Origin: Escherichia coli O127:H6 str. E2348/69 | GTDB lineage: Bacteria; Pseudomonadota; Gammaproteobacteria; Enterobacterales; Enterobacteriaceae | Length of the DNA: 64,000 nucleotides | Assembly: GCF_000026545.1 (NCBI RefSeq) | Contig: NC_011601.1 | Reading direction: 5' to 3' (one strand) | Part shown: positions 12,001 to 15,000 of the stretch, in pieces | Position numbering within the stretch: the stretch's first letter is position 1 | Layout: each line of letters opens with the position of its first letter | Program-made: the position numbers

Positions 12001-15000
12001 CCTGACCCTGACTATTAATATCCGCCAGCAGAGCATGTAACGTTCCCCACGCTTCGCCATTGGCTTTTTGCCAGTACATTTTCACCCGCTCTGTTTGAGG
12101 ATTAACGGTATACGCCTGTACGGTCAGCGTCGGATCTGAGGGTGCGCAATCATCAGCGGCAACAGCAAACAAGGGAAGTAAGGTGAGGGTGAGAAAAATC
12201 CGTTTGAGATTCAAGGTGATCATTCCTTTACCAATGAATAGCCGATGCGCCATTATAGGCCCTGAATGTGGGATTTTTTTATCCTGTTAGCGACCTTGAC
12301 GAGTACCAAAAAGCGCGAAGTTCAACTATTGTTCTGTGGTGTTCTGTTGCGTGTTGACGGCAAAATTTTGCTGGCGTAACATGCGCGCACGATCACTCTA
12401 AGAGGACATTCGCCTTGGACACACCCAGTAGATACTGGCTCATTATCCTGTCATCCAGGATCAACTCCTAAGGCTATCCCTTTTTGCTGATAGCCTTAGC
12501 GGTTGTCAGCGACCTCAATTTTTCCCGTCGCGCTGAGTCAGGCTGTTTAATGGTCTGAAACCCAATTTGTTTCTGTGTGCCCACCGAACTGTCCGATATT
12601 TTAAGCATTGGGAGTCCCGGTCATGCTGAGCGCATTTCAACTGGAAAATAACCGACTGACCCGGCTGGAAGTCGAAGAGTCACAACCCCTTGTAAATGCA
12701 GTATGGATTGATCTTGTCGAACCGGACGACGACGAGCGACTGCGCGTACAATCTGAACTTGGCCAGAGCCTGGCAACCCGCCCGGAACTGGAAGACATCG
12801 AAGCATCGGCACGTTTCTTTGAAGACGATGACGGCCTGCATATTCACTCCTTCTTCTTCTTTGAAGATGCGGAAGATCACGCCGGTAACTCCACTGTGGC
12901 ATTTACCATCCGTGATGGTCGTCTGTTTACTCTGCGTGAGCGTGAACTGCCCGCTTTTCGTCTGTATCGTATGCGTGCCCGTAGCCAGTCAATGGTGGAC
13001 GGTAACGCCTACGAGCTGCTGCTGGATCTGTTCGAAACCAAAATCGAACAGTTGGCAGATGAAATTGAAAATATCTACAGCGACCTGGAGCAGTTGAGCC
13101 GGGTAATTATGGAAGGGCATCAGGGCGATGAGTACGACGAGGCGCTCTCCACGCTGGCGGAACTGGAAGATATCGGCTGGAAAGTTCGCCTGTGTCTGAT
13201 GGATACCCAGCGCGCGCTCAACTTCCTGGTACGTAAAGCACGCTTACCGGGTGGGCAACTGGAGCAGGCGCGTGAAATCCTGCGAGATATCGAATCCCTG
13301 CTGCCGCATAACGAATCCCTGTTCCAGAAGGTGAACTTCCTGATGCAGGCGGCGATGGGCTTTATCAATATCGAGCAGAACCGCATCATCAAAATCTTCT
13401 CGGTGGTATCCGTGGTGTTCCTGCCACCGACGCTGGTCGCTTCCAGCTACGGGATGAACTTTGAGTTTATGCCGGAACTGAAGTGGAGCTTCGGCTACCC
13501 AGGCGCGATTATCTTTATGATCCTCGCGGGCCTGGCACCGTATCTGTACTTTAAGCGGAAGAACTGGTTGTAATATAAATGCCGGGTAAAGATTGTTCTT
13601 TATCCGGCTTATTGCTGAAAATTGTCTTTTTCAAAGTCATGCGGGTTGAACACTCGCTCTATCTTATTTTCCTGGGTTAGTTGATACTCATTGTTATCAG
13701 CAATAAAAAAATGAGTATTACGGTAAGGATATTCATTAATAACCATTAAATAGTTTTTTACGATGCAATTATCATTGCTCTTAATCGTCGGGAAACAGTA
13801 GAGATCTTCATACGGCCCTTCGATATATTTTTTATAGTCAGTGAAGCCATTACCGATATCAATAACATACCAGGTATGCCAACTACCTTCTGGTAGGGTA
13901 TTTTGACTTTTAATTTCATCCTGATGCTTCAGATACCAATTTATTTTATCGCTATCAGTCCATGGCAGATGATCAACGACCAGAAAGACTGAATTGCCAG
14001 CATCAGAGTATGTGTACAAAATCTGTACAGGACGCAATGTCCATAAATTATAGATGCAGCATAGAAGAAATAAATATAATATAATTTTCTGGAGTTTTCT
14101 CTTCATAGATAATTTTCGATTCTTTCGATAGTGTTAAAATTGGTGAAAAAAGGTTTGAAAGCAAAGTCTTTATGCCGTTGTAAAAAGAACCATATGCGAA
14201 AAAATCTATACTTGTTGTAAATCTTGTTTTTTATATCAGTCACATCCAAACCAAAGTGGTCTTGTGCTATGAAATGAATGGTAGCGCTCCAGCCCATAGG
14301 ATATTTTTGAAAATTTAAAAGAGATATTTTTTGAGCTGAGATATCATGAATGCTGATTCCCAGGCCATTAAAATTATCTTTAAAATTATTGAATTTATTT
14401 AGTCTTGATGAAAGTAATTCGGTCTTAATCTTTTGTAGGAGAAGAGGCCGGTATCCTATCGTAGGTGTTGAAGAAATATCATTTTCGATACATTCTTTGA
14501 TTACACGTATTGGGCTATTATAATCATATTTGTTTATTCGTTCATGAAAAGATAAGTTCAATTCCTGGCTATGGAAACTGTTGCCATTTCCATATCTAAA
14601 ATGATCAATCAGATCCTGGATGAGTGTTTTGTATTGTCCAAAAAAGGAAAACATTTTTGCCAGATCTTTCATTTCTGCAAATAAAATATCAATACATTCA
14701 CTTTGTGATATTTTTGTTCCAGAAGTTGGAACACTAAAAGCACCATAAGTAGAATTCGGCCCAGGAAAATGGTATTTAATGAGGCGGTAAGGATCAACTT
14801 TTGCAGAGATGTCGCTTAAGCCGAGTGAGAGAAAATCTTGTTCTTCCATATCCCCATACTGCATATCATCAGCAGAAAAATCATCGAATAAAGTAATAGT
14901 TTCGAAAAGTGTACAGGGCATATTAATTGATGAGCCTAATATGTTGTTCATTTATATTCTCCTTTCTTATAATTAAGGGCAATGTTAATTTGATAAGAAA

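Follow-up and report, generated by a model that had tools for sequence, protein, structure and literature searches.

A likely orphan DUF3289–DUF943 effector–immunity pair at the variable corA–rarD locus of Escherichia coli O127:H6 strain E2348/69

Between corA and rarD, Escherichia coli O127:H6 strain E2348/69 carries two AT-rich genes that an initial annotation, made from the sequence alone, described as a translationally coupled cassette and as a possible toxin–immunity or defence pair. Which of the two is it, and of what use is it to its carrier? We approached this question by computational analysis of a 64,000-nucleotide stretch of the genome (contig NC_011601.1), here called the window. 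The picture that emerged is that the cassette is likely an orphan pair of a DUF3289 effector and a DUF943 immunity protein, related to pairs that are served by type VI secretion systems (T6SS), and that in this strain it is probably of use mostly for immunity. The E. coli cassette is thus an unstudied member of a kind of system described in 2024–2025 and is not new in kind.

Both genes lie on the minus strand. The effector gene (14103–14951) encodes a stand-alone protein of 282 amino acids (32.9 kDa) and the immunity gene (13609–14106) a protein of 165 amino acids. The two open reading frames (ORFs) have four base pairs in common (14103–14106), where the TGA stop codon of the effector gene overlaps the ATG of the immunity gene in an ATGA motif (junction sequence CTATGAAG, by direct reading), an arrangement consistent with translational coupling; ORF coordinates and junction bear out the sizes and the overlap reported initially. 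A Shine–Dalgarno sequence, AAGGAG (14959–14964, minus strand, likewise read directly), is located 7 nt 5′ of the effector ATG at 14951. It is part of an AT-rich leader (14952–15134, minus strand) that is common to the O157:H7 allele and forms the right-hand end of the cassette, as the alignment between the window and O157:H7 is unbroken from 12623 to 15134. On the opposite side, the 35-bp gap between the convergent stop codons of corA (13573) and of the DUF943 gene (13609) is occupied by a GC-rich 12-bp hairpin (13581–13608, no strand assigned), retrieved as a terminator-like match and by RNA folding. Its folding energy of −15 kcal/mol (z-score −5.7) was equalled by none of 200 shuffled sequences, and it is probably a bidirectional terminator between the DUF943 gene and corA. 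Given the strong Shine–Dalgarno sequence, the ATGA overlap and the shared terminator hairpin against corA, the effector and immunity genes would be expressed together as a single unit. No consensus sigma-70 site was recovered from the coding strand when the sequence 5′ of the effector gene was scanned for promoters. A 216-residue JGI gene call from a metagenome, in which a DUF943 domain is joined to a CorA domain under the name ‘magnesium/cobalt transport protein CorA’, probably arose in error when the gene caller ran across the short spacer between the convergent corA and DUF943 genes.

The statement that neither protein could be assigned to a family holds for inspection by eye, but profile tools recognise both, and profiles and predicted structures alike place them in effector and immunity families rather than in ordinary housekeeping families. 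The 282-residue protein matches NCBIfam TIGR03034 with 395 bits (cutoff 156) over the complete model (positions 1–274 of 274) and Pfam DUF3289 with an E value of 6.1e-83 (model positions 2–270 of 272). In RefSeq it is labelled ‘YPO3983 family protein’, and a literature search for ‘YPO3983’ found no papers. A basic n-region is missing from its N-terminus (MNNILGSSINMPCTLFETITLFDD), the Kyte–Doolittle mean over 19 residues reaches 1.17 at most, and a Sec/Tat-type hydrophobic signal sought there by hydropathy was not detected, in agreement with the original description of a cytoplasmic protein. The 165-residue protein matches Pfam DUF943 (E value 2.2e-27; RefSeq label ‘DUF943 family protein’). 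It starts with the basic sequence MKRK, continues with a hydrophobic signal-anchor helix (residues 8–26) and ends in an alpha/beta domain predicted to be periplasmic, so that the membrane anchor plus soluble domain proposed at the outset was recovered. Across 65 homologues, V44, I55, W57, G87, C104 and C114 are invariant, and we infer that Cys104 and Cys114 form a periplasmic disulfide.

The effector model, calculated from a 54-sequence alignment with a predicted local distance difference test score (pLDDT) of 90.8 and a predicted template modelling score of 0.87, matches the effector chain of the solved T6SS effector–immunity complex 9jdi, and the DUF943 model, calculated from a 65-sequence alignment (pLDDT 89.3) and predicted to face the periplasm, matches the immunity chain of the same complex. 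In the models, then, each E. coli protein has its counterpart in one partner of a T6SS effector–immunity complex solved from another phylum. A DUF3289 hidden Markov model run against PDB sequences supports this assignment with an E value of 1e-28 to entries of the same family, in which the DHFGLD, FRxWFxLQ and KPF blocks are conserved. The complex in question is BtpeA–BtpiA of Bacteroides fragilis (PDB 9jdi, 9jg8 and 9jg9; Li et al. 2025, Cell Host Microbe 33:1901), which belongs to the same effector–immunity family as the E. coli cassette even though the effectors share only 22% of their residues and the immunity proteins 10%, the hosts come from different phyla and BtpiA escapes detection by the DUF943 profile. 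BtpeA differs in that it comprises 608 amino acids, a large N-terminal portion among them, and depends on the adaptor BtapC, whereas the E. coli effector is a 282-residue stand-alone protein.

Relatives that have been studied experimentally assign a role to each protein. A PAAR–DUF3289 protein from Yersinia is toxic to E. coli when targeted to the periplasm, whereupon the cells become round; the toxin is neutralised by the DUF943 protein encoded next to it (PMC11148199). The T6SS-dependent secretome of Aeromonas jandaei includes an orphan stand-alone DUF3289 protein (Fridman et al. 2025, PMC12135965); only attackers with a T6SS kill a mutant deprived of the pair, and the downstream gene rescues it (PMC12135965). 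A survey of Klebsiella tied clusters of DUF3289 and DUF943 genes to one T6SS type, and DUF3289 is one of the toxin domains listed for the C-termini of PIX-class orphan effectors. Taken together, the DUF3289 and DUF943 families, their published effector–immunity pairing and the matches to the chains of 9jdi speak for the toxin–immunity half of the initial proposal.

The pair from Yersinia pseudotuberculosis, T6EC1–T6IC1, resembles the E. coli cassette in Pfam families and gene order, and its immunity protein has the same topology, with a transmembrane segment at residues 7–26 and the remainder in the periplasm (PMC11148199). Unlike T6EC1, the E. coli effector lacks a PAAR domain and is encoded as an orphan at corA–rarD, where no T6SS is apparent in the strain. 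The A. jandaei protein (WP_042032936.1) is likewise a DUF3289 effector whose gene is an orphan at a distance from T6SS loci and is followed by a gene for a small membrane immunity protein; the latter, however, has 95 amino acids, a signal peptide as well as three membrane-spanning helices instead of a DUF943-type signal-anchor, and its host, unlike E2348/69 at the sites inspected, has an active T6SS (PMC12135965). A DUF3289 gene followed by an abutting or overlapping DUF943 gene was present in all five other contexts that we examined, namely in Salmonella, in two tandem pairs of Enterobacter, in an orphan pair with 41% identity and next to a PAAR-fused homologue. The two tandem DUF3289–DUF943 pairs of Enterobacter (Logan SRR11948719, 6499–9319) lie at a locus unrelated to corA, and the first effector of the array is shortened to 225 amino acids; they show the copy-number variation typical of effector–immunity arrays.

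The domains to which DUF3289 is fused point in the same direction. Among 30 longer homologues, T6SS carriers are represented by PAAR (nine cases), Hcp/TssD (two) and DUF4280 (one), and cell-wall modules by M23 peptidase (three), PG_binding_1 (two) and, once each, LysM, SH3_3 and a Rv2525c-like glycoside hydrolase domain; M14 also occurs once. These partners suggest delivery by T6SS and a connection to the cell wall. A Pfam profile search found no carrier domain (PAAR, Hcp or VgrG) in the 282-residue protein itself. Only residues ~85–275 of the query are common to the long homologues, and this part should therefore be the toxin core. It contains the residues conserved in the 54-sequence alignment, H202-D203, Q230-D-H-F-G-L-D236, D239, W254, L257-Q258 and P267, a set rich in His and Asp such as one might expect of a metal-dependent hydrolase; the invariant cluster of H202-D203, D231-H232, D236 and D239 is the probable active centre.

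We infer toxicity, cognate neutralisation, delivery route, expression and defensive role of the E. coli pair by analogy with these relatives, and the sequence of events would be as follows. The effector would be made without a signal peptide in the cytoplasm of the producer and be harmless there; indeed, cytoplasmic DUF3289 proved harmless to E. coli in a 2021 preprint by the same group as Geller et al., and the producer should therefore tolerate the effector in its own cytoplasm. This corrects the notion of a toxin acting in the cytosol of the producer, as the site of action would be the periplasm of the target cell. A T6SS would carry the effector to the periplasm of a Gram-negative neighbour, where it would cause envelope damage, of which the loss of rod shape brought about in E. 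coli by relatives of the effector may be a sign. The DUF943 protein is predicted to sit in the inner membrane by its N-in helix with the putatively disulfide-containing domain in the periplasm, where it would bind and block the incoming effector. In carriers armed with a T6SS, the effector would be injected into neighbours while DUF943 shields kin. In E2348/69, the immunity gene would be the useful part, guarding against T6SS-armed relatives that fire this type of effector, and the intact, translationally coupled effector gene would be carried along unused.

The mode of action deserves separate consideration. Colicin M/Cmi and the ColM-like bacteriocins (PaeM, pectocins and syringacin M) share with the pair the combination of a toxin acting in the periplasm with an immunity protein that is anchored in the inner membrane and faces the periplasm. 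For the Yersinia DUF3289 toxin, an action on the cell wall in the manner of colicin M has been put forward (Geller et al. 2024, PMC11148199), and the E. coli effector may likewise work as colicin M does, at the periplasmic face and against wall synthesis. That DUF3289 is a true colicin M homologue and cleaves the lipid II pyrophosphate linkage, as in the proposal of Geller et al., is compatible with an effector–immunity pair and is a serious possibility, if one that we would rather doubt. In fold, the effector model repeatedly resembles the catalytic domain of colicin M, though weakly and with scores below usual significance levels. An hhalign comparison of the 54-sequence DUF3289 alignment with colicin M (query sequence verified as 100% identical to 2xmx_A) returned a probability of 0.25% over 13 unrelated columns, with no part of the catalytic region aligned. 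The catalytic signature of colicin M is DxYD(x5)HR; it is absent from DUF3289, the signature of which is QDHFGLDxxD. Judged by signature and sequence homology, neither of which was found, membership in the colicin M family is not established. A further reading, which we think rather unlikely, holds that the effector reaches its target by a route independent of a T6SS, or that its H-D/QDHFGLD centre performs an envelope chemistry other than that of colicin M. Were either to hold, the corA–rarD cassette would be more than a silent relic that includes a gene for immunity.

How did the cassette come to lie between corA and rarD? The GC content is 0.30–0.36 over 13600–15200 compared to 0.50–0.57 on either side; it amounts to 32.6% for the segment 13574–15134 against 52% for the remainder of the window, and the GC content at third codon positions is 0.29 and 0.36 for the cassette genes versus 0.63 for corA and rarD. 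The pair is thus far richer in AT than the flanking core genes, as originally noted. Comparison with the K-12 locus confirmed that yigF and yigG, rather than near-identical orthologs of the pair, are present there. Homology to K-12 restarts at 15118, within the 5′ end of yigG, and the segment in common with O157:H7 stops at 15134. By blastn, 15118–16152 of the window corresponds to 6107–7179 of the K-12 locus; a K-12-type remnant of the yigG 5′ end (15118–15205, minus strand, right-hand limit approximate) is apparent from blastn and from a translated match to YigG residues 9–24, with 11 of 16 residues identical. In this strain, then, yigF and the greater part of yigG have given way to the cassette. 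The O157:H7 genome NZ_CP012802.1 looks different at this end, where a second, 147-bp copy of the corA 3′ end, 94.6% identical to the resident one, lies directly upstream of the cassette and is followed by ~980 bp unrelated to K-12 (together 4530–5656 of the locus). A hypothetical ORF of 99 amino acids in the ~980-bp stretch had no family match. The arrangement may be a scar of cassette entry by recombination within corA.

Among 5,426 complete E. coli genomes, 2,633 carry the cassette (query coverage of at least 80%) and 2,396 the K-12-type yigF–yigG segment, so the site is nearly biallelic. Together with the base composition and the K-12 comparison, these counts support the horizontal acquisition at a variable locus that had been suggested. 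Two classes of cassette alleles can be distinguished, one with 95% identity or more to the window sequence (929 records) and one of ~89% identity (1,722 records), carriers of the latter including O157:H7, O111, O45 and the B/T7 Express (BL21-derived) lineage (e.g., the E. coli B-lineage genomes NZ_CP053597.1 and NZ_CP115179.1). At the amino acid level, the two E. coli alleles are 84% and 91% identical. Between E2348/69 and O157:H7, the number of synonymous substitutions per synonymous site (dS) is 0.43 for the effector gene and 0.26 for the immunity gene, compared to 0.09 for corA and 0.10 for rarD; by these values, the two alleles either predate the core around them by far or stem from separate imports. 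The ratio of non-synonymous to synonymous rates (dN/dS) is 0.18 for the effector gene, 0.19 for the immunity gene and 0.06 for rarD and is not calculable for corA, which has zero amino acid differences; these ratios indicate that selection maintains both cassette genes. Chance ORFs, also considered, are ruled out by the strong curated-family matches of both proteins together with this purifying selection. A pair with 63% amino acid identity to each of the two window proteins occupies the same rarD–corA interval in Salmonella enterica (6909–10371 of the loci), and the polymorphism of cassette versus no cassette therefore spans two genera. The source names of this Salmonella cluster and of those closely related to it point to non-enterica subspecies, houtenae, arizonae, diarizonae and salamae among them.

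The use that E2348/69 can make of the pair depends on its T6SS status. Clusters for T6SS in E. coli have been reported at aspV, metV and pheU, and our inspection covered these three sites in NZ_LT827011.1, an assembly of the E2348/69 lineage, as well as the 64-kb window. No T6SS genes were found at aspV, where tRNA-Asp is directly followed by yafV, at metV, where three tRNA-Met genes by mltA are directly followed by a serA-like gene, or at pheU, where tRNA-Phe lies between an integrase remnant and dicD; the window does not contain any T6SS gene either. In the same assembly, cadC (6605–8143 of the locus) is an annotated pseudogene with an internal stop codon, and only the integrase fragment remains beside pheU. 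None of 12 atypical enteropathogenic E. coli strains related to EPEC1 (enteropathogenic E. coli lineage 1) has a predicted functional T6SS, and the aspV site of E. coli B, a carrier of the ~89% allele, holds IS (insertion sequence) remnants only and no T6SS. A literature search revealed no direct statement on T6SS in E2348/69. The absence of a T6SS from the E2348/69 lineage is therefore well supported, if not proven, and it is because the three sites hold no T6SS cluster that we propose a defensive role for the pair in this strain.

Several points weigh against this interpretation. Toxicity, neutralisation and T6SS-dependent secretion are known from relatives of the pair only, the link to colicin M is weak, and in an early preprint the roles of the two proteins were assigned the other way round. 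The T6SS inspection comprised three sites and the window, and a T6SS may be encoded elsewhere in the genome. An intact effector gene under purifying selection is odd if its product is never delivered. With no consensus promoter upstream, the cassette may be silent, whereupon the immunity role would fail as well. Finally, BL21 holds the ~89% allele, yet the Yersinia toxin killed BL21. Since it did so despite this allele, the DUF943 protein resident in BL21 must be either narrow and allele-specific, or poorly expressed or silent.

Alternatively, the pair might be an active weapon in E2348/69, exported by a T6SS outside the three sites or by a T6SS-independent route such as bacteriocin-like lysis, a reading that we consider improbable. 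The effector gene is of full length, with the entire TIGR03034 model covered, and is under purifying selection, and the inspection was limited to three loci of one assembly of the E2348/69 lineage. However, these loci are the reported homes of E. coli T6SS-1, -2 and -3, and no functional T6SS is predicted in EPEC1-related atypical strains. The effector has no signal peptide, hhalign shows no likeness to the import domains of colicin M, and the cassette is devoid of a lysis gene.

Toxicity upon over-expression is a common artefact with membrane proteins. This is of relevance for the reverse assignment made in the 2021 preprint, in which DUF943, the membrane protein, was taken for the toxin and DUF3289 for an adaptor of the T6SS, and which relied on over-expressed Aeromonas DUF943 being toxic to E. 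coli while cytoplasmic DUF3289 was not. The same group later found periplasmic DUF3289 to be toxic and DUF943 to rescue, the genetics in A. jandaei agree, and the depositors of 9jdi name the DUF3289 chain effector and its partner immunity protein, with both E. coli models matching accordingly. The later data thus overturn the assignment of the preprint, and we regard reversed roles as very improbable. A two-gene anti-phage or abortive-infection system, for which the initial annotation had argued from a two-gene, AT-rich layout at a variable locus like that of many defence islands, or a classical cytoplasmic type II toxin–antitoxin module is hardly credible, as neither protein matched a single PADLOC or PHROGs family at E ≤ 1, the partners of the homologues are T6SS and cell-wall modules, the second protein is predicted to be membrane-anchored and periplasm-facing with conserved cysteines rather than a cytoplasmic antitoxin, and DUF3289 is non-toxic in the cytoplasm in a relative.

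The window contains further features of note. Just 3′ of the rarD stop codon, a self-blast detected an imperfect inverted repeat (15207–15240, minus strand) that is conserved with K-12 and forms a stable hairpin (−21 kcal/mol, z-score −3.8) without a U-tract. Between uvrD and yigE, a gene on the minus strand (10504–11406) encodes a 300-residue protein of the S-adenosylmethionine (SAM) hydrolase/SAM-dependent halogenase family with a signal-peptide-like N-terminus. It is present in E2348/69 and O157:H7 and missing at the K-12 position, and its NCBIfam matches to (R)-SAM hydrolases and fluorinase are sub-threshold only. A gene for an Rpn-family recombination-promoting nuclease/putative transposase (20380–21240) is located between rhtC and rhtB, which are adjacent in K-12. 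Furthermore, a block of ~15 kb (~28494–43478) between metE and ysgA is unexpected from the K-12 gene order in this region. It comprises hxlB, a ptsG-like phosphotransferase system gene, tkt, genes for a MurR-type regulator, a LysR regulator and a cytosine permease, arcC, a ylbE pseudogene broken by ISEc13 (37668–39041), fdrA, an AllH-family gene and a gene for a cysteine hydrolase.

If the cassette is indeed an orphan DUF3289/DUF943 effector–immunity pair, about half of the complete E. coli genomes, including those of O157:H7, enteropathogenic strains and the laboratory strains B/BL21, would gain a functional label for a common accessory locus. It would also follow that BL21, a standard host for toxin tests of this kind, has a resident immunity gene of the same family. 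Beyond this, three matters retain interest: that lineages apparently devoid of a T6SS (E2348/69 and probably E. coli B) have kept an intact effector, the balanced polymorphism of cassette and yigFG, which Salmonella shares, and the chemistry of the QDHFGLD centre. With a biallelic site, two divergent alleles and carriers both with and without a T6SS, the corA–rarD system makes it possible to ask why effector genes are kept where the machine that delivers them is missing.

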